Source of the DNA: Rhizaria sp. SCN 62-66
Lineage: Eukaryota
Length of the DNA: 64,000 nt
Assembly: GCA_001724265.1 (NCBI GenBank)
Contig: MEDY01000076.1
Span: 62,001-126,000, forward strand
Direction of reading: 5' to 3'
Shown here in pieces: positions 5,703-63,998 of the stretch. Below the pieces are notes generated by a model. It ran no database searches. It saw nothing but the letters and a program-made list of their open reading frames with translations, and had not been told where the DNA came from. Made by a program: the position numbers and the translations under genes. Position 1 is the stretch's first letter. Every line of letters starts with the position of its first letter.

Positions 5703-5734
<32 letters not shown>

Positions 5735-11202: not shown

Positions 11203-12652
11203 TAGTTCCGTCGCCTGAGAGCTTGCTACACTGTGACTTCAAAAGTTGTCTCCTAGACCTCCATTTTCTAAGTTCACCCCAAACGCTATCTTCTGCTATC
11301 AGATCGCTGCTTTGTATATTTATTGCACTGTATAACACTGTTTTTCTTCCAAGATCAATTAAAATGTGTTGTTTTTATTTAGTTTCGTTTTTGCTACCCG
11401 GCTCTATTCAGTTCCTTTCCTGTACTCTTGCTGTGATGCGACATGTTACAAGACACGTATGTGTCGTCACAGACGATAGGTTTAGCACATCCGCTCACAT
11501 GTACAACAATTATAGATAACCACTATACACGATACACATGAAGTTGTTGTTCATTTTTCAAATGTTCATTATTATCATGGGTCAAGCTCGTCTAACTGGT
11601 TGCTTTGACATCATCAAACCCAATTGTGGTGAGAGAAATAATCGACGAACAGAGAGTCAAGATACACACACCGGTCGGTAAAGCATATATATTACATGCA
11701 ATAATAAAGTGTAATTGTTTTGAAAGTAATCTTTCTATGAAATGAAGTCGCTACAATACAGTAGGTGCCATTGAATCGACAAATGTTTATTCTCCCCCTT
11801 TTTCGCGAACCGCTGCCCATCCCATTTTGGAGGTCTGTCTGGGTGAGATCTAGCCATGTTTAATACGGTTGACTGTCCGTGGTTGCAACGTCTGCAACGG
11901 CTTATTGCGTGTATGTGATCACAGTATCTTGTTATTGGGCGCTTTGTTGGAAAAATGAGTTTGTGGGAGCGTGTGTGTCTTCCCGGGAGACTTGGATGTC
12001 CCGGTCTCAGTCGCCGTCGGCGCTTTGCATTTTGCCTCGCGACGATCTGGATGTGAGCTCACACGCCGCTACGGCGAGACCTTATTTTGCAACTCGCGTT
12101 GACAGTGCCAGATTGACGTGATATTCTGCTTTGCACTTTGTTTCACTCATACCTTGCCTTGCAATTCCCTCCGCCAGTCTTCAGCACACCAACAAGCAAC
12201 AAACACGCCGGTCTCACCTCTCCCCCTCCTTTCTCGCCGCCTCCTCGCTTCTGCAGACTTCCTCCAAACCTCGAACCTCGACAGGTAGTTCACCATTGCC
12301 AAGGTTCACCACCCCATCTTGCCTGCTCCCGAGCTCGTATCATCTCACGGTCCCGGCCTATCCGTTTCCCCTCCGCACCCCTCCCACGTGCGACACCAGA
12401 CTGGCCTCTGACCCGCATCCTGCCCTCACACACTCGCAAACGCACTAAGTCCGTGCTCTCGGCAACAGTACGCCGCTTCTGCGCCCGGTTTGCTCCTCTC
12501 AGTTACGCTACAGTAGCCACGCTCGTTTTTCTTGGTGCAGATATCTGCCCTCGCGCGCGCGCCTTGTTGGACTGTCACGTGGCCCTCCAAAGTCGTATCC
12601 TCTCGTGAGTCGTGGAACAAGAGAAGACAAAGCGTTGTGTTTTGCCTTTGAT

Positions 12653-13143
12653 ATGTTTGTCGCGTCTCGGGATCCGACACTAGCGCCACCGACACCGCCA
12701 ACCGACAGCAACAACGCCAGTACGACTGCTAACAACACTAGCACGCGCCCGACTCAACAGCAACAGCAACCGCAGCAGCAGCAGCAGCAGCAGCAGCTGC
12801 ATCAACTGCAAGTGCAGCCGCCACCGCGCCAGCGACAGCTTTCGCCGTCGCCGTCGCCCACTGCAAGCGCTGCCGCCGCCGCCGCCGCCGTTGCCTCCGC
12901 CGCTGCCGCCGCCGCCGCAGTCGCCTCCTCGATCAGCAGCCTCCACCTCCAGACTCAGCCGCAGCAGCAGCCACAGTCGTTTCTGCACTCGCAACCTCCA
13001 TCCCAGTCGCAGTCGCAGGGACAGACACAGGGGTTGGCCCACCACCCGCGCATCCGGGTCGACTCGCCGGCCGTGCCGCGGGCGGCGTCTCTCGTGACCA
13101 CTCTGCTGAGCAAGGGCGGCGCCAGTCCCAGACACAGCGCGAA

Positions 13144-13174
<31 letters not shown>

Positions 13175-18884: not shown

Positions 18885-19149
18885 AGCAAGACGGGGAAGA
18901 GAAACCACCGGCTTGCTGGAGAAAAGCACTGCCTATCTGCTGGGATGTCTGCGTGTGAGTCGAACAAAGTGATGTTGCGTTAACAAGAAAAGAATTGCGC
19001 CCAATGGCATTTGGATATTGTGCCATATTAGTTGGCGCGCCTTTCGCTTCATGAAGTAGAACAGCAAGGAGCAAAAATTAGTCAGACTGTAGACGTCGTA
19101 CGGAATGTGATCATGTACTCTACACAGCGATGACGCTCGTTGCAACTGT

Positions 19150-21450: not shown

Positions 21451-21635
21451 GAGTGCTGAGGTGAAGTTAATATTATGTATTGAAAGCAGCGCATTTACGA
21501 GCGCAGAGATTTGAGCTAGTGTAAAATATTAATGAATAAAATGTAATCACTCGATTTTCTGAAATTATTATGTGTAGAGATGTCAGAATGATCTTGTAAA
21601 ACAGTTTGGAAGTGTTTTAAAGCCAGGTATCAGAC

Positions 21636-24600
21636 TTACTGCATGCCATTGTTCTTCCTGAACTGCTTTTCGAGCGCCGCATTCTGCCTCGCTGCAGCCG
21701 CCGCAGCCGCCGCAGCCGCAGCCGCCGCGTTGTTGGCGTCGACCCCTGAGCGGTAGGCATCGTAGTGCGCCTGGAGCAGCGGGTGACGCGTCTGCTGTAC
21801 CCAGCCGCGTTGCGCGTGCTGCCACTCGAGCTCCATCGCCACGGCCAGGTCCGCCAGCTCGCCCACTACGACGCCCGCGCGCACCAGCGACAGCAGGCCG
21901 GCCGCGGCAAAGGGACCGCCGCCGCGGAGGTAGATCTGCTGCACCGTGGTGTCGGCGCCGACTGCGGAGCCCGCGCCGGCCGCCGCGCCGCCGGAGCCCG
22001 CACTGACGGTGCTCGCGGCCGTGGTCGCCGCTGTGAAGGCGCTGCTCGCGGCGCCCGCGTCGGCCGCGGACGGCGCCAGATTCGGCGACAGCAGCAGCGG
22101 CTGCAGCGGCGTCGTCGCAACGTACGCGCCGTGCGACATCAGTGTCACTGTGCGCACGAACCCGCGCCCGTCGCTGTTGCTCGCGCCGCTGGCCTCGATC
22201 TCGGCTGCGTCCGCGGCGGCGTCGGCCTCGGCCGCGGCGGCTGCGGCTGCGGCGAGACTGGCCTGCGTGGTGCGAGAACCGGTGTTGATGTCAAAGTTCT
22301 CAAACGTGCGCGAGAGCTTGCCGTTCAAGGTCGGCAAGGGGCCATTGCCGAAGCCGCTAGAGCTCGAGTTATTGCTGTTTGCGCTGCTTGCAGTCGCGTT
22401 CGGACGACTAAAGTCAAAGCGACCTCCGGAGAAGATCAAGCCGCCGCCTGGCTGCGACATTGACGACGACACAGCCGCAGCGGCAGCAGCTGAGGAGGCA
22501 GGCATCAACAGCATCGGTACGCGTCCCGATTTGTTGCCACGCGGCTGCTGACTGCGGCTGCTACTGTTGCCAGCACCAAACGCAAACGCAGGGGCATCAA
22601 AGGTGTTCATATTTGCGGTGATAGTGTGGGTGTCGATTTCATACGTCGTGAACTCGCGCAGATCGCTGATGTGCCGCGTATCAAGCACGGCAGCCGCGGT
22701 CACAGCGGCGGGCGACATGAGCCTCGCTGCCAGGGCCGCGACCGCACTCACCGCGCCAGCAGGGCCAGCGCTGCCACTCGCACTAGAGCCAGCGCTGCTC
22801 GCGAGAGCGTTGCTGTTCAGCGTCGAGTAGCGGTGGTACGCAGGCAAGAAAGCGCCCGCGACTGCGGACAGCACACTGGCGGCCGAGCCCACACCGGTGC
22901 CTTGTCCGGCCTTGGCGTCAAGCAGCGCGGGCGGCCGCAGCGCGCCGACGGCGCCGGGCCGCAGCTGCGCCACGGCGGCCGCAATGAGCTGCGACGCGCG
23001 CGCAAAGGCGCAGCGGCGCAGCGCGAGGCGCGTGAGCGTAGCGGTGAGCGCGGCGAGGCACGAGAGCGGGACCGCCGCGAGCAGCACCGCGCCGGGCGGG
23101 CAGTGCGTGGCGCTGTGCGCGGTCAAGTGCAGCGGCACGGCGGCCGCGGCGGCGTTGGGGCACGCCGCGGTGACTGCGGTCGAGAGCAGGATGTCTAGCG
23201 CGGCGGTCGAGATCGGCACCGAGTGGCGCTGCACGCGCGCCTGCGCGTCGTTGCGCGCCGCAGCGCCGTGTGTGCGCGCCACGGCAGAGCCGACGTTGCC
23301 GCTGACAAGCTTGCCGCTGGCGTTCCTCGCTCTGGCGGTGCTGTAGGGGCACGGCGCGCTGACATGCTCGGTGACAGTGGGAAGGAGCGACTGAGCGTAG
23401 TTCTCTTCCCACGTGAGCTCCTCGCAGTCGCTGCCATTCTGCGCGACTTTGTTCCGCACACCTGAGACGTTGCTCTTGGACTCTGACTCGGCAGCAGCGG
23501 CGTCAGCGGCAGTGGCGGCGGCCTCTGCCTCGGCGTCGGCGAGCTCTTCCTCCTCGTCTTCCTCCTCGTAGCGCGCCAACAACGCCAGAAGGTCCTCTTC
23601 CTCCTGGTCATCGTCGTCGTCATCGTCGTCATCATCGTCGTAGTCGCTCGCGCTGCTGTTCTCAAAGCTCGCGTTGGCGCCGCGACTCGAAGTCAGCGTC
23701 TTGTCGTTGTCGTGGTTGCTGTCCTCGATGGCTTCGTCGCCGTGGCGCGCCTGCGCGACTTCCGCATCGCACGCGTCGCCCTGGTCGAGCTGCGCGTCGT
23801 CGTCCCGGTCCTCGGGGAACTCAGTGTGCAGACCGCGGCGTGCGCCCTGCGCGGGGGAGCCGGAGACGGGGTTGTGCTTGCACTCTTCCGTGTCCGCGGC
23901 GGCGAGAGCGGGCATCTCGGAGAGGCCGGTCATGCGGCGACGGCGGCGCGTGTTCTGGGGGTCATTCAGCTGCTGTTGCTGCTGCAGCTGCTGCTCGTGA
24001 TTGTTGTCATCATCACCGTCCGCGCCGTCCATGACAAAGGCGTTGCCGCTCGCGTTCACATTCGCGTTCGAGAGAGGCTTGTTATTCATGGACACCGGCG
24101 TCGACGGCGCGGTCGGAGAGCCCTGCTGCTGCTGTTGCTGCATTAGCTGACGACGGCTCTTACTGTTGGTTCCAGACTGGCCCTGGGCGGAGGAGTTGCC
24201 ACGGCGACGGCGGTAGTTACCGTCGCTGTCAGGGTCGGATGACTCCGCGTTCGGGTTCGGGCTGTCCATGTACCCAGTGGGGCTCGAATAAATGCCTTCG
24301 GAGCTTGTGGCGCGGCTGGTGCTGTCGCCCGCGTAGTACACCATGTCGCCCTCGGTATAACCATAGTCGCCGTCAACCTGGTCACCGTCGTCGTCGTAGC
24401 CATCCTCGTCGTCGTTGTAATCGTCGTAGTCGTCGTCATCCATGTTGTCGTCGTCTTCTTCGTCGGTGAGATTGTCGAGCTCGTTGTCGTTGTTGCTCTG
24501 ATCCATATCGCCCATCATCCAGTGATCAGCCTCACCCTCCTCTGCGTCGCCATTCTTCGCAACGGCAGCGGCAGCGGCGGCGGCCGTGGCCATCACACGC

Positions 24601-60600: not shown

Positions 60601-62768
60601 GGGAACGACAGCAGTGTGTCGGGCGACAGCGACGACAAGTGACCAGGAACCACAGCAGGGTGCGACAAAAGAGCGAACGCTCCACTGTTGCCATTGAAGC
60701 TAGCAGAAGCTGCGGAGGCCGCAGCAGTGATTGCAGGCAACATAGCACGCGACCACCCGTATTCGCCGACACGCATATCCTTACGCAACTGCGCGTTCAA
60801 GCCGCTCAGCTGCTGCAGCAGCACGCCAATAACTTCATCAGCAGAGGAAATCGCGTCATCAACGTCACCGGAGATAGCAGCGGCACCGGGCAGCAGCGCA
60901 CTGGCGACCGCGCGCGCAATGGCAGATGGCACTAGAGCCCCGGCGCCGGTCTGCGGCGCGCCGACGCCGAGTGTGACCGACACAGCGGCGGCCGCGGCGG
61001 CCTCTGCGATGCGGTAGCGGCGCACGCGCGCGGCCACCGCGAGCGCGAGCGCGGATAGAGACGAGAAGATCGGCCGACGACGCGCGGCGCGGAGCCGGTG
61101 CTGAGTGATGGCGGGCAGCGCGCGCGCGAGGGCGTCGAGGCTGGGGACCGTGAGCATCACGAGTTCCGAACCGACTGCATTGCTCGCAGTCAGTGACTTA
61201 CTGTCAGCGCCCGCGTTGTTCGCAGGCGCGTTGTGCGTGTTATTGTTCGTGTTGGTAAAGCCTGTGGCGCCTGTAGCGGGAACAGAGAAGCTTCCGTCAT
61301 TGTAGATCAAGGTAGCCTCTGTTGCAGACAGCGGCACAGCAGTGGCCTCGTTTGCGCCAGCGGTAATCACATCGCCATTGCTCTTGTTGTTCCCGCTCGC
61401 AATCGTCGCCAAGATAGACGTGGCCTCATGAGGAGACAGAGGCAGATAAGCAACAGCATTTGCAGTTGTGCCGTCAACAGCGTTCAAGCTATTCGCGTTG
61501 TTGGTGTTGTTCAAAGAGCCACGTGCAAGGGCGTATGCGCCAGAAACGTGGCCGGCGTAAAACAGCAGCTGCTTCTCGAACTTCGCCCTCGCAGCGTCGT
61601 ACTCCTGCACGATCTCTGCTAGTATCTGCGGGATGATGGGGTCTCCGCCGCAGAAGTGGACGAACTTCGCCAGACGCAGCGCGCACGCAGCGGGAGAGCG
61701 GTCAATCATGTGGACACCGTTTGCACTGCGACTGAGAGGCGTCGACTCAGAGTCCGAGTCTGAGCCAGAGTCCGGCGGTGAATTAGTGCTCGATGCAAAC
61801 GTCGTCGCAGTGTTGGACTGCGGGATGTCCACCACATCATCGTTGCCCTGCTGCTGCTGCTCACGGTCGCTGCGGCCAATAGTGTCAAGACTCGCAGTGG
61901 TCGCAGCGCGGGCGCGGGCGCGAAGCTTGTCAGCCTTACGGCGCGCCTCTAAAGCGCGGGCGACGTCGGCTGTCGGTGAGCAAACGATGAGGTCGGAGAG
62001 ACCAAAGAACTTTGCAATAAAAATGTCCGTATTCTCAGCGTCGCTGCCGTAGTGATCTTTCCGCTCAATGTTTGCGTTTTCGGAGCTGTTGATATCTCCA
62101 CTTCTGGGCTGGTTGATTTCGTCGCCGATGAGCACGATGTCGCTCTTGAACGACTCCTCAGCGCGCTTGCTCAGTGCATCCAGAGAGAAAGAGCCTGAAG
62201 ACGGCAGCTGCGACTCCGACTGCGACTGTGCGGCGCCGGGGGCCGCAAAAAAGCTGTCACGTTCGCTACTGCGGACAGCGCTGTCCGTGTTGTTGTTCAG
62301 CATAATATGCTGAGTCATGGCGGCATCCTCAGCAGCAACACGTGTCGAAAAGACAACATTACGACGGCGACGGTTGTGCCTGGTATCTTGAGCGGCCTGA
62401 TCTTGACCCTGCGCAGCATTGTCATCAGAATCAGCGACAGAGTCATCGCTCTCATCACTGGCCTCTTCAGAGGAGTGGCTTAACTTACTGTTGTCTGACT
62501 TCTTCGGGACAAATGCAAGCCGAGCAAGGCCCAGGGGCAGCAGCTGTGCGCCGCTGACACCTGCAGTAACGCTCGTATTGAGAGTGGAGGAACTAAGGAT
62601 GATAGTCGCGACAGCCTGCTCGAGCACGCGCCGCGCGCCGGTCTGCAGAGCGGCCTGACTGAGATCCGCAATCAGCGCAGTCGGAGCCCACCAAGGGGAC
62701 GACTTGACTGAGCTCTCGACTGTCTCGGTCATCTTAGCAATCATAGTGACAATATCAGCCCCGGTCTG
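21636..62768 (-). CDS. Giant uncharacterised low-complexity protein, at least 13,702 aa, apparently one exon
   Basis: 41.1 kb stop-free frame with Ala/Ser/Gln/Asn-rich composition like the low-complexity regions of neighbouring genes. No AT-rich intron-like stretches. Ends in TAA at 21638-21636, where sequence abruptly turns AT-rich. No catalytic domain recognised. Confidence 0.85.
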   Translation of the reverse strand, partial: QTGADIVTMIAKMTETVESSVKSSPWWAPTALIADLSQAALQTGARRVLEQAVATIILSSSTLNTSVTAGVSGAQLLPLGLARLAFVPKKSDNSKLSHSSEEASDESDDSVADSDDNAAQGQDQAAQDTRHNRRRRNVVFSTRVAAEDAAMTQHIMLNNNTDSAVRSSERDSFFAAPGAAQSQSESQLPSSGSFSLDALSKRAEESFKSDIVLIGDEINQPRSGDINSSENANIERKDHYGSDAENTDIFIAKFFGLSDLIVCSPTADVARALEARRKADKLRARARAATTASLDTIGRSDREQQQQGNDDVVDIPQSNTATTFASSTNSPPDSGSDSDSESTPLSRSANGVHMIDRSPAACALRLAKFVHFCGGDPIIPQILAEIVQEYDAARAKFEKQLLFYAGHVSGAYALARGSLNNTNNANSLNAVDGTTANAVAYLPLSPHEATSILATIASGNNKSNGDVITAGANEATAVPLSATEATLIYNDGSFSVPATGATGFTNTNNNTHNAPANNAGADSKSLTASNAVGSELVMLTVPSLDALARALPAITQHRLRAARRRPIFSSLSALALAVAARVRRYRIAEAAAAAAVSVTLGVGAPQTGAGALVPSAIARAVASALLPGAAAISGDVDDAISSADEVIGVLLQQLSGLNAQLRKDMRVGEYGWSRAMLPAITAAASAASASFNGNSGAFALLSHPAVVPGHLSSLSPDTLLSFPTVNHTGGNSSASSANDSSLASASASGTAADWAHNTARVLAARTAAAVHAASFGSSTSVLQSQTQSLTLDADSGAASATAAATAVTALLQALPAAVRRAVAPVLAAAARAAAADAWLCAPGARTRAFVAALALVERDARCNHTASRRTAALTSSDASSPGGVVGGEWVVAHLTKTLTASLVEQVTALVGAHVEQRWGATANNNTGSTSAQPQLNHAVDANSASNSRGPSPFNNPSNMNATMIMTSALLLGNTRNVNAAAMVSAAATMLRLNFPSLLAHAGFSRSVPSPSLPSLGRSLATHYIGVCARFRLHALVLSRYLFGLGSLLTHGLLASLTSPVYSDPRACALSTAEMRINGNNNGNDKRQQHSGAYSLLPGLYVVSKGDYLFVDFIDPPLRPAVTAVPTANVVNGANATGDAGRARSGSEAQQGGSLLSRTDSFDPRYLFRGMVPRLAPAGAGKSAFSDRSAALSPIVHSLAAATAHSQSPISHGRSPSQPHSSAAQSLAFAGAQRLLKFTGDDAFVRAHLAPGAAQAQPQLALASFQGAATTADTFHFPAPYTTTARRLDAEKNASSAPVGVLTAQVPLAVLLHGAGWYGRYWVAKTGFIRAVAPEPVNTRAIPDELVTVTFAAAAASVPASHNKSGVKSTGSHEWAAPVLLTVPQLTELYNARARASKQANNANTNASCASAEKKINASEKSDASAGVSLPDLLSNIMDLSHRISDTTTNTSTAVSPNSSPASQSHLYYTPASFNVNLSLTPFSAAATAAATAAASPSALLSASSSAGSVCSWSASMARLWDAASGLATGAAGPAGGLLPYSWLTAAAALWPEAPIVSTAVTEEQENDPNNANGDANSASAASATEADSYIYAQSHAISSAAPLFPAHTLPYGNNSNIGNNNTTSSMLLPQPTLTRQGTSNGLPGAGSLSSASGASHGSYGASVSSAMVPLWSSSSSHAASVAADVAYLAWLADTDPDRAAAVLAEHTLMMSSSTASFTSSPHFGSTNNAGDIEAAPGNLAPSAFSAAYRSPSTSLWAGLSRFYPSTAAGLLTYTTAAAARDPWGVSAGYRGLQSLLPVYSSTQTRSTAATVIPATANAAAANGGPSGTPGAAGGRRRSTVTNTAEAYLALPSSALASTAANANMGNTSANGNSQSYVIFDPSLYVPGWIPPVTSSANATSTGSLTRARSPSRNSTSNTPGNAAGRGLSPRPNAAASANASAGAYGPYSSISVVSPQALAPAPVWAPADVFELLHSAGGSAVTAINAIDTLLRARGWARARHGTAAAATYHNYLMHGSAALASKAHASAAAHGAASTASTNTDSAGSVYGTSTGVNSANAGATATFAQPNGIADTFFEVGLLHPLFPPPPPPAPPAVAAAPAAGSRGRTKSTTQSSKTTTQSNATAARAPVAVAAGVIDGADASASFASVHQRPASASPEASLSRTSSLNAITATATPLPLLPQQSNSGGQLPPPQTPSDASDCGSDSESDSDAPPASAVSFDSLEAAREAQARAAWRQYRDRASVLASIDCAWVRIPLPAAAPGPPAAGTAPGAAAAAAAATASTTGGGSKPAWALRPLAKAVACVLDVERRTAAVLARMLTDHSAKALVKDVADLPLTRRGLSAASANRNTDAAADGREEDRALAGLWRPPVAIPATLSPAAVLAASPRLRLSSDPAPANVTSGDAGEADAVAALLRLPPAPRRLATPAIVRRLAHLSGLPVGPPLMWYVALLTSTAVKQQLQQQRQQQWGQRSRVRGSGGAQAKGATARTNVGTKTTYTGGKSFTSLAALAGALHALAVTDTLHTRAVTRYLMSNVCPPQLVAFALSVFPGSVLPRHAVYGNAYKIARTPSMSNNTSGNVTPGSGTVATQQQQGVSPTQISPSPLVAAAENNNANNANAGIPRTRLDRRSSGLMNPQQYQQYANSSSAAPAAGAYPGLSSTRDDANELVHPVGGFLSSLTAQVVASAIVYIKTHKFPLTSYSSATASVSLDSDSDEDNDDDSREHTGEDAEADADAAAPESAARVCPHVTLLSGLAHENYRVGLVSPSVFYDYPPIDAENSYANSVAPHLNAIHGDLDSGNSTLGSAFKQSLSVARRSLPPQLLNSHSLASLRPFAPSHLGLLSAPAAVGSAIPDVVLFRWTLYEAPRPFTASYDAKASANATSARFTFNVSSDGSKQDRPVTGAILTLPLDDGIIPSLPRLLSKLRERETAASRALREQIALLRHVLAHRLPLIAGMPVTDSAAAAAAACCASNSSNKEAIAAATAAAAAAESAAGTAPAALTRAALLPLLTLKSPLPFHSLLRLLTELSQLGCRYASPAALAATLERVVAAATARRRDGFTSALNDANSQLRALHMAFLPMLRLTGVSSRTTAQQQQQQLQQQQQQQLQSSPHSTTHMFNLHTPPQFSPRDRESMFPDRDRSGSEAKPPVEILRFSTMPILNSGGNAMQTENNNAIGVPSPITRAASSNIGSTGFNPAPLPMPAPLSSTSPSSVTGSTSGLGPAPAPGSVSGSVSASHAFAFTSPAPATTTGRGVTAEFGSKRATLRFDRAQLHALFLATGGGPRAQAELAHVAPVVAQIVAGEVRAWTAHAIALSRAGGVVTVKSSPEQEAAAAAEAAAANAAAQTAAETARASVWGDNNNISKNSSFNVGARNSGIRSVMDDDDDEDEYIQTSQPKHSKYGLSLTTNMSDNTDGDPSHSHNSSGIEMLPGVPPPESIASNADNNSSGISAPHMMRSVSLRSAPTFSRVESAAQSSLPASIGSTAPTVANALPSVPVAATAQFLVFARILHHTQRLCSGARRASAAAARRLLLSSLRLSTSSASLNKSVSVDISLLDILLTPAAANSVATVSPRVLLHSLALIAFQLQPSLSAITRARADRLLRATLSGTASASNSVGASSRADHAFYDFFSENFGEFDYVHPVWTALAPRSLAESIPSSVAELTARSGSDDAAKMFFAAAGLDAGLVLGSSASSAFKCTSTASQEGSGKRGEQQSQGFRPERSAACTLRQSISSEHNATVNGLLLHSMSARMTLMLPATINAATVDANAAFGCPLFFVQLLSTLQSLAAQGVAFSSFRDLALAVRATKLSANTKSTFRAIIPLTTVAVNDANATLSTGVSAKIHTQGSAASDTTSAANSKTDNNKSSGFKSGKNTSRSDSNNASGSALGFGAFHKAHLQSGNVAEVLSNTPLAALLQSGVGAALMVPLPLPTPVASGASSSNVAGTAAQPAANSISSSTTGATPATGTATGTATPAVVLLSPPAPATAAAAANTTSASLLSSHEPAPTPLTSAGVNSSSSSSSSSTANPGASAVAPQQQQLQRTARIEDLAAALFPHNRVLSQRLAALMAPYTATVTNLFSGGSASALAALSASNAPWLLQELGGAALTTNATSTTNPSSSSASAAGSSANSGAGTGANEGTSGSGSSATTVPSWALAQSSHLAEAALAVAPLALFAMAPGEAVLLAPMFTQNHDKMMNISALSSNNPPQSSKTAVNAVSALPLSSPLGAALLALSADADKALLWGNILAAAAASSSLTGFAAGSGAGVSVTRIKEAMRYPRVRSVCSLVSQADAAKIPTLLWDLLPMAADSYQMKYVSGGARSNVSASMNSNADPIKCNTESDDDSDEDAAIQNKQDTAVVAKQLPSKWDEAALPLAYPQQTMLHCLYLLSRALTERLEEEGLPSANALPASLAVAAATAASAAAANARNKTTSNTSSATASASLPPPPARAPAAMNIVILPTDVDTMTALASDSARSLLLSHSENSHGHANGLNAEVAAALATAAAVLGERSVYQLVPQDAIATAPRRAPVQRSASELALPIAPSAESGATARANTGGASKTLVPSPTPAAVAAATTPIIGNPSADAEADAAAATAENDGSGGFFTPVRATRASSRVSFANSVAGSNSVDAAVTAADAAVTASTAAVAAVATDSAHAFAAAFPSLTLQVAEALSVPFCEFAPDIFASATTVKMPSSSPGGNSRSTIVPSESNDYGVEYGFVYGPASSQLHSKAPLYTLSVTLDINGSRTRSNTIFATATAAEAEAWGWGASSVEPYNYNYNSSNAVGNFSLDNASSSGANAGLTQPTPSVMMASPTGPSHRLSVSFTPTTPGGARRSGTGLGYNALGQQHQLQMNANNGTPLGAFSPLTGTGGSSISKRGSIMVASPSLGFRRSTSLFPNLSPALTPANVAAAEAMTPLHNANSSGQFLSPPSAHGQSASGLRSPYAGPSAEAPYQLHFEDPTLTSYDPNDYTARGSLAFVPLHQSYGTHSFSQQHADALLGAGATLGPRGSVLAPASPYLGGQRSLNRGGSISAGYGPTVTSGYPGMTPRMSMPSPLHSRGSVFMSPQQMTQRGSIFGFGGGSSIGYNPSASIGSITLRSVAGVPIAGAPMTTAAAAAAAAASAASSFSLPLLSTPQLHYLSLPLLQSSFDLPIPRSLTLPAAPALPPLLPLGTPARLSQSLRALMYIHAAVESEHVAEVVGILSTALAPLLQRLQQSAGDGDALGQDQAASASVAGAVWVQRAARALVTLSGAGLDTADHLRSALAAGLTLFDVKTVDSSSKSTDQSQTNSVVTLTVTMPSVSVMTTAPLVSSANNSPRSSSGSRPHSRLQSRSPSPAPSSPRRLSPTLDSLASTKILARRMSSSSSSSQSHHKRSLSRTGLMATGSGGSRAESPSLTPGATPHTSFPSHRRVFSTASGHANSASSFMTTSSISRVGSRVGSRRSSVLDNRSPSPNTFVSSPRASFAQAPDQSSDNASDDNANVASIMVALDIAFSRAANSVAAAHRRFILLCATATTHLRASPLHSGALHGTGLETTFERQRVYPDRVRNLLRILRRRGTVAAALPAVSPLNKSLTVNKDVAATVGALLVGPVARAMSLLQSIVAFQGSFTLGRTASGSLMSALSWTSETPLLPAPSAYTISGNKQHMDNKEFNNDGKVQSDTVSSIASVVASSVIDVPFPLTFTFIQRALTTQAMRLAPASVTAAVPTAAPAPAPGAPLWSRPLALLPLSATAVLTSPLTRVALAVDAAARSSESKLSRARAAFLELFYEAIGLSVSTGLDLPAFTRGNCGDSAKSSKKAFTQKLKSNNTTKHVILALGDSSNDNNGDSRAMPSVLASAIAEDATLLTTRFSLALAKGTVPLSSPAAALAAHAALQQPTGPALAGGLSSVRVRNYDGASSVNGAIVLERAKLSVDCSDQTTSMNGGNSTVNVSRLNTSVLGATIEEGEEDEHLNGETEATQEARARALALTQDSSSGYGAGGLSAMSDRRARRRSRNRRRNNKSSAKAYNSFGDADSFNSTDMTAEMSNMSFAGVPSIVDNFAINAAAINTVEENTEKAADSGDEGETWGELPDIEDVFMDSIKLPQSLHSLLSPLSSCSQTEHASTNMNCVGPTVDVDASLELLAAATAAIKLFTAGGLTFDSLPALVDALTITAHSLRTPHAQLTAYSPLSVMNDDLLTDSALSQQSRSLHESVFSVLVLSIPALLPQLMNPTVAIPGLGIAGAVALLPSATASSNNSHGNSSNSLPTGEDDFISSATSLPASNAGASVESTFSISTAASLYTSRTITALDLAIPDTFVTPALATHTHTVFTELTKAGPHAAPPTYAFTPTVPHSGAAHGHYNRLPSVGPRVTALRTVSARVAAAAAAYTDTASGPAALVALSTRVPTSIVALTRLAEATDADFDSGDGDWRGGSRRGSTVAANSSAAAGTAAAAAAGAQAAVAAANAAATSSNTGAASPAMARPWSGAAGLKQQPPQPPPRPQSPLGSPKSTTSSAADTHAASFIASVSPQMPSRSPVPSGTSFNGKSGGSPPQRPQSPSLTKPNSFDLTTDEPPAPPTRLFAGELGSIVNMITASERERPSAGRLARTVLERVHDVSNAQQRRLAARRLRRLGRWYARAEAASLYNSSSVYSSVSKDDMAVDGAVALGRRGVRYYTMPWPTRRAVHWNPFALPTAATHAVSHYSAANSAQHNDSESKLGASDAVAALRLADTTTVKVESAANNVAANMGCQSFDDEHIVIVSASNGGLVAAGNSSATSAGTARASTARAATARLTARGSSFAFATVNNNSNAAAAGSAVGASSLIDSNGGSGVCGSDISAFSPRFTPDGAAPDGTMLYTPSQSTLSLLSHARAAAAVAAHAAALPHTLALASTSESKSETRAVTTAAVALPLWNPPAALDFSLALVLPRPRSLASMLPHAHTESTLFPARVTEKDTNPAAVAAAEAAAEAAAAAAAAEAEANAGVRRDAKRAMAKARARARARAHLQQQQQQQRPRDSNKASGAAKSKDGNASSQSNFSSHAIHDEFVYDDDDDEFDDDDDEGGFDSSGDEGIDFVADLAALPPAAVFPRAVPLLQPFNVVHASLMHAAAQSISSQPHNNDSADSYPSENTATAATLQLQTQSQTQSSHRSLALLSQPWYAARVLALTQVLTSHALGNTALPAQLVDNNNAQAATATADAAALKSDTAYLPDVPDMLVHLAEQHARFTTLSELTTALGKLAHDTTQQKMVFTESVNTAVAPLTAAINAAVSPKSVASASGSTNSGANTIMMAGTAAAGSMSLWEASRVWALAGAGAYTLTHLATVTQALTTAAKRAPALLSPINAASATNADANSTGTDDQNAAAAALMGLSADDLWIVTTLLTHLSATVLTAAGTKLTVTLPASARTTATQPSGLSRTLSLSSHAPGVASAVLAPATTSVRVRSLTPFATGLALVIRLLHTSFLLKRHLVMSFAAAPTSQSLAELGAWHARTAPAPTAAAAASVSGLATEAAVAQGSGVMTMLQRYRERDAHGRGTDRMRNSGNSSKANSSVLAKRRVSIASGSGRRDSIGARRLSMSNSNSNVNAASGSNESANHAAFVAAGAEDSEDGGSDNGAYSSLSRRGSQSRRYTGQVSSAAVEAENEAEVYYDDYDNGRDGVKTKMSANANNVHYNIYMFNMNGGQAQLQSRQQQKQHRSYIMYGPDGKVDLNAQPPPFASQNSDEQLQQEQEQQAQQQQQQQLLSPVALAERENKRRRQLRRTRRRLLAESSVLPLSDPAPYSGLVATSASAAQPSVHGHSPQATVAGWLVPRAYAALVSESVGGACVSARVLCALALRQWGHDSSDNNVAKLSTTAITSITNIDHNNSDLDSVVHLSYTYLVSTNVTASSPRSSKRSTTSPASVVMPRRVRPLPVRPLCDPRAALWELRAGGLTFSCAADLLAALRLVHLRRPLLDVAASADPLEVVMTSNVAATVRNDVIKHRLYGVGEFAVAQQAAAANAAARGGGALIAASPYMAPMTTPKASFAAVAAAAAAVGAAVSRTGPEADLDNSNKNAGLNANASATPRPVSKQASTRVAFGPGTPLSGPAAASAIAAAGAAESNPVDEVAAALHPHIALLTGFANAQCDNIVSALSSSVSSSSGCAGIGASAGTAVSETGSATAALLTGVRPHVPGAALPPGSVQVTVSIPSDRALVAYLSARIGTLTSALSDITTVAAHVIALVELVAASEGGNDALVSRDAAACAGQLGSVYAVEQLFATEATRSEAYQAESDPLFDGTTSEISAEPLIPQAGKSPGQAHLPSIFSMSPLPGAAALAQHRRNSLAGGAGLGSSGLAAARGAATPGTSRLLSQEAVSRNVCANLHTVLRGLALLRTDLEIALRRAIELRNALANAAAAAEDVLTGNALSTGSTSSQPRKLPPRGSAGVEAKLSPRAPSTNGPTSPRSSGTMTARGSAGGAAAGSVTAAGGRAAMAANAMAITTKIIVDKAVDLLSSDGKGAGGAQLALLSAPPQLAALIQLQLHALALPSPPRPLATFTASTAVLAQAVAASRAHRAFGSVLHQLAHERRRVVSTADLATAVYCRHSAPAALEALLLQEPVLALCRAAAVQCMHALSFVTSLALDPVTTAEATHGATLPLLFAANGTPAAAAAFLPQTNSGNSFSSAGGLPAGSSDSGDFANGTSGPVAGALPARTSFYGYPPNSNGNNNAAVLQAANDAAIPGSAIVAMADAHPRLRALLRFAPPTQVLLRTAGPGFTATGSGIYASAMLPSSSTAGSGRNNTGDDLSRGLRGPRRSYLDWQGRLSVSGMRLSFQTAANAPTTAPMSMGTGYSGGYGLPLNNSIIPNNGNAGSQGNSNSSSARASVTAALGARAAAVLGTVQAGSTVYVPPAPHDTIIASVAAAPGSLLPLLQLHAESLKPALQRIGALLFPETAAVSANASSTSSSSSGFHNKDDGLVRPQTYAQSAAAAQAALATLTNALASASASTATSSRSRNSSGKNTVNDGVSLTVALTSPALLAALPQTTASIAGGLSSALCDWPSHWVAAPPRLSYSAPAVSAAITADKAAFASAESRARASVVASGPATLAPVQLRLAPSQRLAAAAAASAAKAKAVANAVNVGAGTGPRRQSLVSRLARACQWAQSAQVMLPSSNALAAALLPAAATGSTSFSVANPAAAGNGGIAAFLVNNGSNSSGGSLSAASGVGAAANANVGSASGGMTMHPAAAAVAAAAATSAAASATAAPALLTLGAAWFQSPGALAAAARAPTVLPLVWPTVAAAVAAEVTADLTRQKVTGAIAEADLAADEAVAAAATSAAASAAVFAASSSSSSSASHSDASISTTAGAAGGHGRGSLMQSSPAKMFSSLAATSTAAIAAAAAAAASSYQLAPVSRLATMTAVISTIPLSPSVPNALSWQCAPALVAADANGIAVETDSERNSSVSEDKTTTKAKTTSLDFAGSYRYTLPASASANSFGNRLLDSPVSTLPHGRVPSLLPSLTVAPATVSSNVTVAQWSAFAAARAREASAALLIAGDALCFDSTPVALSQHSARAAATALTGLATPATHAPAPAPGAAAAALGSVVIAGTHVPVAVKWGQPQLAIATPGYNPCATTLPIGPRAAPSVAALPFAPGPAMRGDGSFTWYSLSSNVSNNVERVSFSQPLSPSSSASASAFASASAAAAAAAASAAAAAASVTVLSNASTIGGSPTSTSSFAGVPSMSTLHHPSSYALFSGESKCLATVTRTAIALLQNAANASGNSNPNASAGTSQKQQQQPRVVTVMTALSMTRSIHRPWLHSLPPPALTAATLRPVALQLIASLQSNGTNKGSSPVAVSALGLWSSPVPQSLPPLVCADVITLPSLLATESAISASRAASATTGALAAATATALRSRQALLSTVGAAPSPAAAAVTMAAALLPLARFTPHGPAGVSATAASVIAGASSAAHQALQSQQSTLQLQQMQPQQQQQQAPGASSGRNSFSTGYPSPAAAAAAAAAATHSAVASLAIRPTSADAVVSAAAAGGFELEAAAALLATTPLALSLALAPAVAAAPALADNADGGTHANHLIAGAGDLPIPLALQRELATVLSLERSHPALARARRAAAATVARGGMQSQAALVFALSHPEHVTAPQQQQSHPPASQHHQGSASAKSSAYASSPVATTASSTALAVHPALAPTAAAAATAVARADAAGKWARASFAANAALNHSRGRGSNNAFGAFDVHEHSADSGVAAISSSSAAMANRNGESTAVVPASVASNAGALHDEQVSNAATAQSGSDAAASANGSGTRPAAVVVPPAMQSSSVTLHQALASAAPAVAHLITTLSAAVATPLRTLSHTALPLPATAVLLSTAIRIALPKMCQAPQYTRAAALKVALIDRTLQGPSLVSCVAATQALLGVDILTLAIENGRNAMDSNGELQSWELSDAVVGAIMSVFAPPAGSIATMTKGQPPQQTQQPCLRPLPHWLSCCAVACAVAAAMPLPAVAAMKADYATFAANLTATATTTPESSSAHSRSNAASAGALTARAGPISNNNTVLPLYLHRDHSSVFSVPPTSQSLAALPGVFPMSSAASFASIVSTLGPSATAAASTAAPTLALLSPAPFWHALNTAATSAVSTSGLAAAAASMLPPPLPFLTPPPTYFFGTALSPQAEMHYVIKPTVAGWLVRAPPTVRRSARLHANALRLVLFTFPPLTDGAALRWPQAAFEYIVLTSPSPGLAVLMAQALGMMMTEAALAVAWARFQHHSTSVRGLLTDLTSAVAPALAADNAHTDAGGAANNNLSSRSYGTAASATLNTQQQQQQAKVRGVVSARADSRPVSGHKPQPPSASAATGNVVSAAEPKRFVQEMAGALSKQMALGRRFAQSNSSSASASSSAVTPPTLQQLPSLIAANAAATAAVEAGTETVGVASAAKQSHMALSRYSRTLTAHDSVFSAPAMQRFMSPRPQQLALRLLQLASTAPAHLRSLHTALSHPSCSVFSLPAASDPFSTPLGPVIAPALATGAVSAQTVAIALAACPAPSVPLPLTSMTRATVTHTVTDTAAAAATVFTPVPIKASKSASPYGDAVTGSSDGNIMMNAAAASRFGVIVASQSLILELPPATSLLATLEDDSNSTSNGSTRAGNSSSSGSGGSDREDANSRARAGADSRVLALSGVAPLTPHESSFFDSIFSASARAQTMCPVSSMFLQTPSRRPLYPHTAPSEAAYLIRLCLSQAAAAATAADIAASVVSDAADIMYEEEDDTAAAGGNDAAAANATGTGTGATSANATAAVTPVPGSAADTPVGTPAFGPTPTNLSAALHRARAATPAGAANTAADATPNGTGANAGIRAGVAVPQLRAMPRGPYEAFALRRQRQTVAVARALVEAADGHAAALASWQRQQRAHHRQQQLLAQQQQQQQADAAARRAGYASASAAAAAAAAAANNGSNAGNDFHNSHGARRSVQPILPAASGTVSAGAPPPALLAIMSLEPVTGTPLVRALRDLVTDYDAAVDRALRKVSRLRPARVAQASNTTAASGSDVSVANLSINGYGPGMNAGDSYAESYSFNDLTINSNTASSTTSNGATIGKQPANAAVSGSWGGSWVARIDPTAIVFIGSLGNNFYHPIPVAYPKTTITISTTASASVSNTNTPSRARVASAVDTTVAAEPESVELAPMPVPTSALVAAAPLSDALLPVLASLAALPRVAPVFALGSQHGAAWSLPLWCRDKALSQPVLAISSVLLTISQLELVPQSPLMTIAAPRLLAQSTAAAALASATVTGAANADALGPLTAALEAQLTTHAFSAVDSATVQTPVIAPALLLTLAHALEAWLCRLTTLAGNPIALTVTLNRLAMSRAQFSTMGQLVAAVATDIARVAVPATHAYAVASVTSVPPAASANSEPSTSTAITVPSSGGNLAAGAAKSHQVNTLGNNRMSSFAVRSSIFHSSANSNDSTGDQQQQQQPHNHHHHNYHQQPPRAHATTNAGTLVAASARPDIPAFVGIGCGDCEQRDLAPASTAANATVSGSRNNTALTTTNMSGGSASTSAAFAAAAAAVAAADSSILDRFTPSVLQALLTDMLTQSSRAGGTDGAGADDDSVGAIDLTEEDAVFAQASYADPAIVSALNARANARRAQSQASNNNSSSANNNVSGSSGAQASTLARIRAARAAAASAAATAANSDSLFTSFPSTLTAGHAALLITLAGGVPAAAHALLSRLRAMRLNFSTPDELVLFCVSLCAPTHPRPLDIVVAKARAMASDDDGAARLYALRTGVDAAYGGHSQCDCGHYATAASASASVGAACVGACVFPSWVWLEPDIVDCPPIYRVVLPIEPSQQQQQQQQQQSMVLAQSPNKSGSIGADVVAVTSAVTSVSAYTLALTEHNNATSAATTAALAAESAAAAAAAASNPGSSNGSLNAVVVSSSSSSSASAVAMAHRQAATAHASVTTAPGLIDSSFPPASAPVLSAGSVAAAVAALAANGHVFPLVPSDAPARVRALAGVPALPGIGSLPPPRRVAQAAASALGGAGGNGGDAGAAVSLLSASPTGAASLNVAVLVDTALMLHATAPVTVGLLAPVPIAPPCLVSTTINAATAAAAAANSNSNNNSHADANKNGASASANVIDVNTENALKSLHTCDPCSQSLCLVCARAALLMVISELQLLRPRAFAAAEKIAQREAGRARARAARERRYAKKVLRATLRAVRKEDEIAAKAKAQAERRRRLARRRRRQRVMATAAAAAAAVAKNGDAEEGEADHWMMGDMDQSNNDNELDNLTDEEDDDNMDDDDYDDYNDDEDGYDDDGDQVDGDYGYTEGDMVYYAGDSTSRATSSEGIYSSPTGYMDSPNPNAESSDPDSDGNYRRRRGNSSAQGQSGTNSKSRRQLMQQQQQQGSPTAPSTPVSMNNKPLSNANVNASGNAFVMDGADGDDDNNHEQQLQQQQQLNDPQNTRRRRRMTGLSEMPALAAADTEECKHNPVSGSPAQGARRGLHTEFPEDRDDDAQLDQGDACDAEVAQARHGDEAIEDSNHDNDKTLTSSRGANASFENSSASDYDDDDDDDDDDDQEEEDLLALLARYEEEDEEEELADAEAEAAATAADAAAAESESKSNVSGVRNKVAQNGSDCEELTWEENYAQSLLPTVTEHVSAPCPYSTARARNASGKLVSGNVGSAVARTHGAAARNDAQARVQRHSVPISTAALDILLSTAVTAACPNAAAAAVPLHLTAHSATHCPPGAVLLAAVPLSCLAALTATLTRLALRRCAFARASQLIAAAVAQLRPGAVGALRPPALLDAKAGQGTGVGSAASVLSAVAGAFLPAYHRYSTLNSNALASSAGSSASGSAGPAGAVSAVAALAARLMSPAAVTAAAVLDTRHISDLREFTTYEIDTHTITANMNTFDAPAFAFGAGNSSSRSQQPRGNKSGRVPMLLMPASSAAAAAAVSSSMSQPGGGLIFSGGRFDFSRPNATASSANSNNSSSSGFGNGPLPTLNGKLSRTFENFDINTGSRTTQASLAAAAAAAAEADAAADAAEIEASGASNSDGRGFVRTVTLMSHGAYVATTPLQPLLLSPNLAPSAADAGAASSAFTAATTAASTVSAGSGGAAAGAGSAVGADTTVQQIYLRGGGPFAAAGLLSLVRAGVVVGELADLAVAMELEWQHAQRGWVQQTRHPLLQAHYDAYRSGVDANNAAAAAAAAAAAAARQNAALEKQFRKNNGMQ

Positions 62769-63998
62769 CTAGCTCCCACCAGCGTGCTTGATGTTGCGGG
62801 AGGTGACGGGCGTTTGCGGACTGCTGTTGAATGAGAACGCAGAGCGTGGCTGAGACGGCTTGTTGTTGCGCGGGGACAGGGCAGCATCGTCAACAGGAAC
62901 AGCAGCGGTGACAGCGGAAGAGTTGTTCGTCTGCGTGACTGTGAGCACGAAGGGCAAACCGTTCGAAGCTAACGGCGACATGATAGCAGCTGCAGCTGTC
63001 GAAAAAGCAGGAATAGTGAGCATATGACCACGGCCAGATACGTCGTTGCTATTTTGACTGCCGTGGAGCGAACTGCTCGCAGTCGTCGAGGCAGAATATG
63101 GTATCATCGAGTTGCTACTGGACTGACCGACAACGAACGACTTGCCGGCCACAACACGCGCCGCGTCAGCATCAGCAGCAGCAGCAGTATTCTTATTGCT
63201 AGCGCTGATGTTGCCTGCGACAGGCAGCGGGGCGAGGCGCGGAAGCAGCAAGTCGACGACGCTCGCGTACAGTGCGAACCTCTGTGCGTGCGTTATGACA
63301 CCGGCCGAGGTTGACTGGAACGACGGCGGAGACACAGGGCGATGCTGGCTGCCGCTGATGCTGTTCGCGGTCTGAAGAGGCGCGAGTGCAAGTGCAGCCG
63401 CCACCGAAGCCGAGACGGGGGGTAGCGCGCGGACACTGGCCCTGAATGTGACAACAGCGCAGTCAACGTCAGTGCTAGAACTAGCAGTGCTAAGATTGTT
63501 GTGGCCGGTGGGCAGCACAATAGCAGACGTCGCGAGGAGGACGCTACGCGCGCTAGTCGCGATGCGGCGCAGCACTGCAGCCACAGCAGCAAGGTTGGTG
63601 GAGGACGCAGCGGCGGCAGCAGCAGCAGCAGCGCGTGAGAGCGCCTCACTGGCGTTCACCGTAGAGGTCGCACTGTTAGCGCTGTTAGCGCTGGCGGTGG
63701 ACAGGAACGCGTGCGAGATAGCTGCGAAGATGCCATCATAGCAGGGGGCAGAGACGGCGAACACGTGGTCAACAGCAGGAGCAGGCAGCGCCAACGTCAC
63801 ACAGTCACTCGCTGCGTTGCTCTTGTAGATGTGGTCGCCGCAAATAAGAGGAGCTGAGAGAATAAACAAAGGGAAGATGTGCACCTTGCGCTGGCTCGTC
63901 AGATGTAAGTGTCCCTCACCAGCGCCATTTGAGTGCGGTCCTTCGGAAGACAGTGGCTGAGATACGGGGCTTGGCTGAGAGACAGGGTTTGCCAGCGA
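62769..63998 (-). CDS. In-frame upstream continuation of the giant ORF, open to the window edge and ending at a single TAG
   Basis: Same frame as 21636-62744. Codon-by-codon reading finds no stop from 63998 to 62772. Amino-acid composition is the same on both sides of the TAG. Confidence 0.75.
   Translation of the reverse strand, partial: SLANPVSQPSPVSQPLSSEGPHSNGAGEGHLHLTSQRKVHIFPLFILSAPLICGDHIYKSNAASDCVTLALPAPAVDHVFAVSAPCYDGIFAAISHAFLSTASANSANSATSTVNASEALSRAAAAAAAAASSTNLAAVAAVLRRIATSARSVLLATSAIVLPTGHNNLSTASSSTDVDCAVVTFRASVRALPPVSASVAAALALAPLQTANSISGSQHRPVSPPSFQSTSAGVITHAQRFALYASVVDLLLPRLAPLPVAGNISASNKNTAAAADADAARVVAGKSFVVGQSSSNSMIPYSASTTASSSLHGSQNSNDVSGRGHMLTIPAFSTAAAAIMSPLASNGLPFVLTVTQTNNSSAVTAAVPVDDAALSPRNNKPSQPRSAFSFNSSPQTPVTSRNIKHAGGS

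Follow-up and report, generated by a model that had tools for sequence, protein, structure and literature searches.

An apparently intronless gene of at least 42.4 kb from an uncultured sludge eukaryote and its putative megadalton orphan product

The polyketide synthases PKZILLA-1 and PKZILLA-2 of Prymnesium parvum reach 4.7 and 3.2 MDa and carry 140 and 99 enzyme domains, respectively, PKZILLA-1 being 45,212 residues long (10.1101/2024.01.29.577497). These synthases resemble titin in being chains of recognizable repeated domains. The gene analyzed here would share with titin and the PKZILLAs the encoding of a megadalton single polypeptide by a single gene; however, its predicted product is smaller than these proteins and features neither a Pfam domain nor a repeat above decoy level. 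Repeated, recognizable modules are also the building principle of giant adhesins, mucins and other megasynthases. Furthermore, taxonomically restricted giants rich in low-complexity sequence and annotated as 'hypothetical' are frequent in apicomplexan, kinetoplastid and dictyostelid annotations. Lineage restriction, homopolymer runs, the absence of a domain and very long single exons are traits that the present gene appears to share with them, but to our knowledge no protist 'hypothetical' giant of 14,000 residues lacking both repeats and domains is known.

The window, i.e., the whole stretch of 64,000 nucleotides analyzed, harbors a main open reading frame on the minus strand (21639–62768; 21636–62768 with its stop codon). 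According to the ORF listing of the window, it comprises 13,710 codons with zero stops; it contains no intron-like stretch and encodes a product of 1.388 MDa with a pI of 8.0. The whole visible frame, including its upstream part, extends over 14,121 codon positions, and the only stops occupy position 410 and the final one. Coordinates and codon counts thus agree with the preliminary description of this DNA, which had reported a single frame of 42.4 kb with one internal stop that is still open at the window edge. The gene end is clean: the terminal TAA (21636–21638, minus strand) is followed by AT-rich sequence with a GC minimum of 0.28 in 21031–21690. The corresponding 2.6-kb spacer (18973–21635, GC about 0.32–0.33) separates the giant gene from the plus-strand neighbor, the two facing each other with their 3' ends, and no further GC-rich exon-like block was found within it.

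Based on position-specific base frequencies, about 181 stops are expected in the 13,710 codons of the main frame, and none was observed (log10 P of approximately −78). When codon positions were permuted within blocks of 300 codons (n = 100), 148–206 stops resulted, as opposed to none in the giant frame. On the same DNA, the remaining five frames contained 251–564 stops and a longest open stretch of 346 codons, and none of the eight longest plus-strand ORFs beneath the giant gene gave a Pfam match. Moreover, the RSCU correlation with four neighboring coding frames amounted to 0.92 for the giant frame versus 0.42–0.73 for the other five frames, and remained at 0.84–0.95 when the gene was divided into thirds. 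Both the missing stops and the host-like codon usage support the earlier proposal that selection has held the frame open. Since the frame is open and uses the codons of the host's genes, it is a protein-coding gene at present or was one until very recently.

In windows of 120 nt, the introns and spacers of the neighboring genes dip to GC values of 0.25–0.41, whereas GC never falls below 0.44 inside 21691–63998. Hence, the designation of the giant gene as intronless could be confirmed insofar as it contains no AT-rich intron-like stretch, unlike its neighbors. For the neighbors themselves, to which one to three introns each had been ascribed, the check covered part of the genes: those for COG4, an M20 peptidase and an isochorismatase each extend over three frames with AT-rich gaps. 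Pfam recognized COG4_m (E = 1.5e-26) and GATase (E = 7.6e-10) among the neighboring genes, and the 291 positions of the COG4_m profile were found to be stretched over about 400 residues, representing an inflated protein. A 666-codon antisense frame over a neighboring gene (16326–18326) exemplifies the spurious long frames occurring in GC-rich DNA. Scanning the window for Rfam families and tRNA genes returned no matches.

The sole internal in-frame stop is a TAG with C as the next base (62769–62771, minus strand), situated in GC-rich, coding-like surroundings free of intron-like sequence. Upstream of it, the same frame continues for 409 codons (62772–63998, minus strand) up to the window edge. 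This extension is coding-like, with an RSCU correlation to the neighbors of 0.79 in frame, compared with 0.35 and 0.51 for the two shifted frames, and contains no window with a GC value below 0.48. As these 409 codons are coding-like and open to the edge, the giant gene probably begins beyond the right edge of the window. The first ATG after the TAG (62742–62744, minus strand; residue 419 in window numbering) follows eight codons past the stop and is a possible start or re-initiation codon; a second ATG is located four codons beyond it, i.e., 12 codons after the TAG. The TAG is shared by the window and run X1 and is identical in a contig of run X4, which originates from another study (62311–63365), and in a contig of the RNA library X7 (62532–62790). 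It is therefore real, and the frame as written is not one uninterrupted coding sequence. Reading of TAG as a sense codon was considered and rejected, just one TAG being present among the 14,119 in-frame codons. A stop codon followed by C represents a weak termination context in eukaryotes.

In sequencing runs, the DNA of the window was found in wastewater or bioreactor metagenomes. Run X1, which may be the source of the assembly, provided one contig of 33,237 nt covering 44000–61711 of the compared stretch and another of 16,614 nt, whose final 2,317 nt match 61682–63998, both without differences. The assembly thus probably extends for some 14 kb to the right of the window. Among the matches listed for X4 were eight contigs of 895–1,929 nt, likewise without differences. 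The polyA RNA library X7 contributed, among the matches listed, eight contigs of 212–457 nt with zero to one difference, located between 46021 and 62790; these contigs carry neither strand nor level, and the library may contain DNA. Depth was present in 29 of 30 bins for X7, where low-depth bins carry no evidential weight. The polyA-RNA contigs are therefore taken as a hint of transcription, with DNA carry-over as a possible alternative. In a second RNA run (X10), partial matches of 20–43 nt only were obtained, and no joints occurred among those listed for the RNA runs. X1 showed many such joints, with sides of 20–24 letters except for one of 36, sited at GC-rich simple sequence; they were read as cross-matches from other DNA and not as rearrangements. 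Runs X5, X6 and X8 cover small shares of the window (0.07–0.16), which have no bearing on habitat or range.

When the window was compared with the 2025 runs X4 and X7, the sole difference listed was a G>A exchange on the plus strand at position 55489, resulting in Ala2837Val in the minus-strand gene. With one listed difference over the 20 kb compared, the 2015–2017 and 2025 populations are practically one clone. The host may be an amoebozoan, a lead provided by a single gene of which one exon of 162 residues was used.

Regarding composition, Ala, Ser, Pro, Gln and Asn account for 6,698 of 14,121 residues (47%), and Leu (9%) and Thr (7%) are commoner than Pro, Gln or Asn. By a SEG-like measure, 37% of the main frame is of low complexity versus 16% after shuffling. 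The protein had been described as mostly Ala/Ser/Pro/Gln/Asn low-complexity sequence; the enrichment holds, but 'mostly' overstates it. Homopolymer runs of six or more residues comprise 22 of Ala, 10 of Gln and four of Ser. Charged residues are clustered, with five basic clusters versus 0.12 expected and six acidic clusters versus 0.005 expected (200 shuffles). A highly charged C-terminal region (23499–24761, minus strand; residues about 13,080–13,500) consists of an Arg-rich cluster at residues 13,120–13,137 followed by three acidic clusters. N-glycosylation sequons numbered 149 versus 114 ± 9 in global shuffles; as these ignore the local Asn/Ser/Thr-rich composition, the excess is given no weight. 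No strict transmembrane segment was found.

Internal repeats remained at decoy level. Self-BLASTP with windows of 400 residues gave one off-diagonal hit (E = 0.008), and 469 windows of 60 residues reached a mean best score of 25.2 bits, compared with 25.7 bits for reversed and 24.5 bits for shuffled sequence. A PSSM motif search exceeded its decoys (information content of up to 22.6 versus 18.9–19.0); the three top motifs were poly-Gln runs. Helix motifs glimpsed by eye were not confirmed, since the decoy-controlled search returned poly-Gln alone. At the DNA level, Tandem Repeats Finder detected nine short arrays of 35–78 nt in 43 kb. A mucin-like protein was considered as well, but tandem Pro/Thr/Ser repeats were absent and no protein-level repeats were detected.

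Two single-sequence AlphaFold2 models, together covering 1,561 of 14,119 residues, predicted alpha-helical islands between coil and no beta strands of three or more residues. Mean pLDDT values were 34.5 and 40.8, and a value of at least 70 was reached by none of 1,200 residues and by one of 361, respectively. The helical islands are tentative because both models are of low confidence. They lend weak support to the arrangement proposed in the preliminary description, in which small folded modules are joined by long disordered linkers; no recurring module was detected. Judged from its composition, the product may be a scaffold or structural protein, probably of the helix-plus-disorder type.

Membership in known families was evaluated by profile and sequence searches. 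Pfam returned no family at E ≤ 5 for three pieces of 4,570 residues and the 409-residue piece. When the protein was cut into 14 shorter pieces (1,000 residues or fewer), eight matches at E ≤ 1 were obtained, all of them (10.0–14.8 bits) far under the cut-offs. No match to PDB sequences was found at E ≤ 0.1 for any of the three pieces. An exhaustive HMMER search with residues 11,881–13,080 (1,200 residues) against 1.84 billion representatives yielded no hit at E ≤ 0.001; as the protein itself was not among the results, the proteins of this organism are absent from that protein library. The statement that no family can be recognized was thus upheld by the Pfam, PDB and exhaustive HMMER searches. 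Within the Pfam results, including the eight noise matches, the KS/AT/ACP and C/A/PCP domains of type I PKS and NRPS megasynthases were absent. Neither Ig nor Fn3 matches nor internal repeats, as in titin and obscurin, were detected, and no piece gave an AAA-type match as would be seen for dynein heavy chain or midasin.

Two further groups deserve comparison. The VPS13/BLTP1 family resembles the giant protein in its very long, largely non-repetitive sequence and is the only giant family with any Pfam signal. However, VPS13_N reached 12.1 bits in one 1,000-residue piece (E = 0.038), the cut-off being 80, which is noise; neither Chorein_N nor any other region of the family was matched. Members of this family form a beta-rich groove; the two low-confidence models of the giant, covering 1,561 of 14,119 residues, suggest helices only. 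FASTK/RAP/RESC6 proteins were suggested by ESM Atlas neighbors from Chlorophyta and Euglenozoa. They are Ala-rich, with Ala/Leu-rich helical hairpins set in disorder, and helix motifs of similar appearance seemed recognizable by eye in the giant. A period of about 35–40 residues is typical of the helical-hairpin repeats in proteins of this type, but no hairpin repeat was found in the giant, FAST_1, FAST_2, RAP and RESC6 gave no Pfam match at E ≤ 1, and the Atlas scores were at chance. In the Atlas, the C-terminal 581 residues (recognition 1625) gave no usable hit, and residues 7,540–7,900 (recognition 1467) gave chance-level hits of at most 0.82. Neighbors at 0.78–0.82 carried RESC6 or FAST_1 on 13–21% of members, and a score of 0.8 or above is also reached by a third of shuffled proteins. 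The results support the view that the predicted giant protein belongs to no known giant family.

Searches for relatives were negative as well. A 10,000-residue piece (region 1781–6780; candidates of 5,500–17,500 residues) was submitted to a k-mer search, in which 455 candidates were scored and none passed. This null result carries little weight, since the tool also overlooked the COG4 frame, a Pfam match at 1.5e-26. A metagenome pattern scan with residues 411–999 returned 296 matches and no relative. Scanning with the alignment of the neighboring M20 peptidase identified 23 loci, the best being a 21.3-kb segment (GC about 0.52) of a contig of 73 kb, in which the frames do not exceed 1,358 codons. 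Applying tblastn with the giant and five neighbor frames against these 23 loci (92,496 bases) gave nothing; hence, neither synteny nor an orthologue is present at these loci. In keyword searches of the open-access literature, no account of a similar gene came up. These searches, including the exhaustive one with 1,200 residues, are consistent with a real gene that appears to be lineage-restricted.

Taken as a whole, the explanation that we consider somewhat better than even is that the locus represents one real, intronless gene of an uncultured sludge eukaryote whose translated orphan product is a disordered intracellular scaffold. Its gene would span at least 42.4 kb, with the 5' end outside the window, and specify a taxonomically restricted protein whose mass is at least 1.39 MDa for the main frame, or 1.43 MDa with the TAG read through. 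Translation would either begin upstream and pass the weak-context TAG-C by read-through, or start at the ATG located eight codons past this stop. The product, Ala- and Ser-rich and without a detectable repeat or known domain, would consist of short alpha-helical islands with long low-complexity stretches between them and segregated Arg-rich and acidic clusters, and would act as a very long, mostly disordered intracellular scaffold. Because of the Arg-rich clusters, a compositional feature, it may be nuclear or nucleic-acid-bound. The GC3 value, which decreases mid-gene to 0.60–0.65 and thus under the 0.68–0.89 of the neighbors, counts against this explanation.

Alternatively, the gene may be freshly broken, in that a recent nonsense mutation to TAG became fixed in the clone, so that translation yields only an N-terminal fragment and the 13,710 downstream codons represent an untranslated relic too young to have accumulated further stops. 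The TAG is real and recurs in the window and in X1, X4 and the X7 contig, a young mutation could be common to all of these near-clonal populations, and the sole listed difference, Ala2837Val, is non-synonymous. Nevertheless, this is considered unlikely: with no further stops against about 181 expected, decay would have to be extremely recent, the ATGs 8 and 12 codons past the TAG could rescue translation, and the TAG-C context is weak for termination. The TAG could also mark the boundary of two genes in one frame, the upstream one ending there and the giant starting at the ATG at 62744–62742, 24 bases on. Such an arrangement would accommodate the ATG within eight codons of the stop and the coding character on either side, but it is regarded as very unlikely, as the other spacers of 120–1,140 nt are AT-rich (GC minima of 0.25–0.41) and none is found near the TAG, where composition and frame continue unchanged. 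Moreover, the RNA-library contig is colinear across the TAG, although a contig is not proof of a single transcript.

A known giant in disguise, such as an orthologue of a bridge-like lipid-transfer, AAA+, HEAT-repeat or FASTK/RESC-like helical-repeat protein, is quite unlikely; low-complexity insertions would have inflated it, and divergence would have hidden it from the searches. This genome does inflate proteins, as COG4_m illustrates, the k-mer homologue search was blind even to the COG4 frame, and the exhaustive search took 1,200 of 14,119 residues; the VPS13_N match and the RESC6/FAST_1 Atlas neighbors are leads at noise level. However, Pfam recognizes the inflated neighbors and fails to recognize the giant, whose matches stay under the cut-offs, with none in PDB and Atlas scores at chance. 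It is extremely improbable that the frame is no gene at all, having arisen by chance from the composition of GC-rich DNA or through chimeric metagenome assembly. GC-rich DNA does produce spurious frames such as the antisense one of 666 codons, the window is metagenomic, and the independent X4 contigs do not exceed 1,929 nt; on the other hand, the probability of the open frame by chance is vanishingly small, and this frame is the only open one of six and the only one with host codon usage. Furthermore, a single frame would not stay open over 41 kb in a chimera, and the 33,237-nt X1 contig matches without difference, although X1 may itself be the source.

Under the preferred explanation of one real gene with a translated scaffold product, about 1.4 million daltons without a recognizable domain, repeat or relative would be very unusual at such a size, and the giant would stand outside the repeated-module pattern of titin and the PKZILLA synthases. 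That it is the largest non-modular protein yet, translated at more than 1.4 MDa without a repeated module or known domain and both built and maintained by selection within a single, poorly sampled protist lineage, is a doubtful proposition at present. If true, megadalton proteins need not come from domain duplication, and giant helix-plus-disorder scaffolds would constitute a new class. Questions are raised on how such a gene was built and kept open and on what use a cell has for 1.4 MDa of mostly unique helix-and-linker sequence, and the TAG near its 5' end poses the smaller question of read-through or re-initiation. The case illustrates the extent of protein 'dark matter' in uncultured sludge eukaryotes and provides a concrete target for public wastewater metatranscriptomes and metaproteomes.

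On the minus strand of the window, a stop-free main frame of 13,710 codons (21636-62768) was observed, and a further 409 open codons in the same frame (62769-63998) extend it upstream and off the right edge. Scanning of all 14,121 positions located stops only at position 410 (TAG, counted from the right edge) and at the end (TAA), which confirms the preliminary description of a 42.4-kb frame with a single internal stop that is still open at the edge. Stops number 251-564 in each of the other five frames of this DNA, where no open stretch exceeds 346 codons. Based on position-specific base frequencies, 181 stops were expected in the main frame and none was observed (log10 P about -78); likewise, permutation of codon positions within 300-codon blocks (n = 100) yielded 148-206 stops versus zero. 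A chance effect of GC-rich DNA cannot account for the open frame, which is under selection. Moreover, it follows the codon usage of the host: relative synonymous codon usage (RSCU) correlates at 0.92 with that of four neighbouring coding frames (0.84-0.95 for each third of the gene), compared with 0.42-0.73 for the other five frames. GC3 is uneven along the gene: it starts at 0.65-0.78 over 3,000 codons, declines to 0.60-0.65 from about codon 4,000 to 10,000 and reaches 0.72-0.81 over the final 4,000. On the opposite strand, none of the eight longest frames beneath the giant gene matched Pfam.

The left 21 kb of the window encode a class-I glutamine amidotransferase, COG4 (3321-6706, plus strand, with N-terminal, middle and C-terminal Pfam regions in three frames), an aminoacylase-like M20 peptidase (7014-9190, minus strand, Peptidase_M20 and M20_dimer), an isochorismatase-family gene (9848-11202, plus strand) and a long Pfam-poor gene (12117-18972, plus strand). 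Each of COG4, the peptidase and the isochorismatase gene comprises three exon-like frames divided by AT-rich introns, which are T-rich with GT..AG ends, e.g., at about 3905-4090 in COG4. The gene at 12117-18972 represents a second large, mostly unrecognisable gene beside the giant one, with AT-rich gaps between its GC-rich open frames (725, 1,127 and 233 codons, about 2,000 in total); its sole Pfam signal, a NIF-like phosphatase, is sub-threshold (17.1 bits, cut-off 21.8).

Comparison of 1-21000 with 21700-63998 revealed a very strong contrast between coding blocks (GC 0.6-0.7) and introns or spacers (minima of 0.25-0.41 in 120-nt windows), so that exon-intron structure can be read from GC content alone. 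Within 21691-63998, no 120-nt window falls below GC 0.44. Since an AT-rich insert could hardly remain stop-free, an intron of the local type is absent over at least 42.4 kb, and the earlier claim of an intronless frame holds for introns of this kind. The gene ends cleanly with TAA followed by a 2.6-kb AT-rich spacer, in which no further exon-like block was found.

In order to place the host, one M20 peptidase exon (162 residues) was used as query. Its best matches were metagenome proteins (62% identity), and the nearest named ones originated from Dermamoeba algensis (55%) and Luapelamoeba hula (52%), both Amoebozoa, and from Aplanochytrium (47%), a labyrinthulomycete. In a quick maximum-likelihood tree of 64 peptidase rows, the window sequence fell into a five-row clade together with unnamed sequences (SH-aLRT 99), nested in a 17-row group (92) containing both amoebozoans. 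This placement suggests an amoebozoan affinity as a lead only. The 73-kb metagenome contig carrying the nearest peptidase relative showed neither synteny nor, up to 10 kb away from its peptidase gene, a giant frame; that peptidase is encoded in a single uninterrupted frame on a contig of GC about 0.52, and gene structure and composition are therefore unlike those of the window.

Public sequencing runs were screened for the locus. Region 54000-63998 is almost complete in three runs annotated as bioreactor or wastewater metagenome, which may be the source of the window DNA and hence are not independent. The same DNA was also found in a run of another study, P3, with shares of this region of 0.69 in run X4 and 0.13 in the polyA metatranscriptome X7 of that study. 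Contigs were compared over 44000-63998 for X4, X7, the metagenome X1 and the RNA run X10. Two X1 contigs matched with zero differences, one of 33,237 nt covering 44000-61711 and the other covering 61682-63998. They overlap by 30 nt at this assembly break, and only the terminal 2,317 nt of the 16,614-nt right-hand contig fall within the window, so that the X1 assembly probably continues the giant locus for about 14 kb past the right edge. In X4, at least eight contigs of 895-1,929 nt matched with zero differences (four plus and four minus among those listed). At least eight X7 contigs of 212-457 nt showed 0-1 differences, and 29 of 30 bins had at least some X7 depth, in an RNA library that may carry DNA and whose contigs give neither strand nor level; all eight of those listed (46021-62790) are in the minus orientation of the giant gene, which as such cannot show the RNA strand. 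X10 gave partial matches of 20-43 nt only. The sole base difference among those listed is shared by X4 and X7 (55489 G>A) and leads to Ala2837Val. Joints were listed for X1 only, not for X7, X4 or X10; their sides span 20-24 letters (36 in one case), and they are located at simple GC-rich sequence.

The predicted product of the main frame has a mass of 1.388 MDa (1.428 MDa with the upstream part) and a pI of 8.0. It is composed of Ala (20%), Ser (13%), Leu (9%), Thr (7%), Pro (6.4%), Gly (6.4%), Cys (0.6%) and Trp (0.6%), among others, with a low-complexity share of 37% (SEG-like measure) versus 16% after shuffling and homopolymer runs of at least six residues for Ala (22), Gln (10) and Ser (4). 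A strict transmembrane segment was not found. Charge is segregated, as five Arg-rich and six acidic clusters were counted versus 0.12 and 0.005 expected (200 shuffles), the densest charged region being located at residues of about 13,080-13,500. Asn-x-Ser/Thr sequons number 149 versus 114 +/- 9 in global shuffles, which may reflect only local Asn/Ser/Thr-rich stretches. AlphaFold2 without alignment predicted helices and coil only for residues 11,881-13,080 (mean pLDDT 34.5, no residue >= 70) and 7,540-7,900 (mean 40.8, one residue >= 70), and both models are too uncertain to serve fold searches.

Self-BLASTP of 400-residue windows returned a single off-diagonal match (E 0.008), and 469 windows of 60 residues, in a sensitive comparison with the real and the decoy sequences, showed no excess over decoys, with mean best bits of 25.2 (reversed 25.7, block-shuffled 24.5) and a maximum of 38.9 (40.8 for both decoys). 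A PSSM motif search exceeded its decoys, but the three top motifs were poly-Gln runs; at the DNA level, nine short tandem arrays (35-78 nt) were present. With no repeats above decoys, the giant protein is not assembled from modules that could be detected. Pfam was searched with three pieces of 4,570 residues and with the piece of 409 residues, and no family matched at E<=0.01 or E<=5; 14 segments no longer than 1,000 residues gave eight matches at E<=1 (10.0-14.8 bits), all far below their cut-offs, the lowest E-values being those of MCD_N (0.031) and VPS13_N (0.038; 12.1 bits, cut-off 80). PDB sequences matched none of the three pieces at E<=0.1, phmmer with residues 11,881-13,080 (1,200 of 14,119) found nothing at E<=0.001 among 1.84 billion representatives, and two Atlas searches yielded nothing usable. 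The absence of a recognisable family, as initially described, is thus borne out by Pfam and PDB for the whole protein and by phmmer for 1,200 residues. A known family diverged past recognition appears unlikely in the light of these searches; on its side, COG4 of the same window is enlarged by insertions (the 291 positions of the COG4_m profile extend across residues 96-497), and a k-mer homologue search with COG4 recovered no relative, which warns about negatives of this method in this lineage and makes the same search uninformative for the giant protein.

The remaining alternatives concern the internal TAG and the assembly. Sequencing error as its source is ruled out by identical contigs from X4 (62311-63365; a different study, 2025) and from the polyA RNA library X7 (62532-62790), both spanning the TAG with zero differences. 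As only one TAG occurs among the 14,119 in-frame codons, a sense meaning of this codon is improbable. Four readings remain, namely read-through (stops followed by C, as here, terminate poorly in eukaryotes), start or re-initiation at ATG 62744, two abutting genes and a very young nonsense mutation. The upstream part shows host-like codon usage (RSCU correlation 0.79; 0.35 and 0.51 in its other two frames). ATGs occur 8 and 12 codons downstream of the TAG. The surroundings of the TAG are GC-rich and coding-like with nothing intron-like nearby. A freshly broken gene is unlikely, and two abutting genes are slightly less probable still. The 13,710-codon frame stands under any of these readings. 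An artefact is very unlikely.

A real, lineage-restricted, intronless giant gene is the best-supported interpretation. A literature keyword search, judged from result entries, found no description of a comparable gene. Titin and the PKZILLAs are larger but modular, the latter with 4.7 and 3.2 MDa and 140 and 99 domains (10.1101/2024.01.29.577497). The lack of detectable modules sets the giant protein apart from these. Giant low-complexity 'hypothetical proteins' of protists represent a known but little-studied kind, among which the present one is distinguished by its combination of large size with a lack of repeats, domains and relatives. The frame is presumably translated, and its product would be a scaffold of great length, made of helical islands and disordered linkers, which may be nuclear in view of its Arg-rich and acidic clusters.
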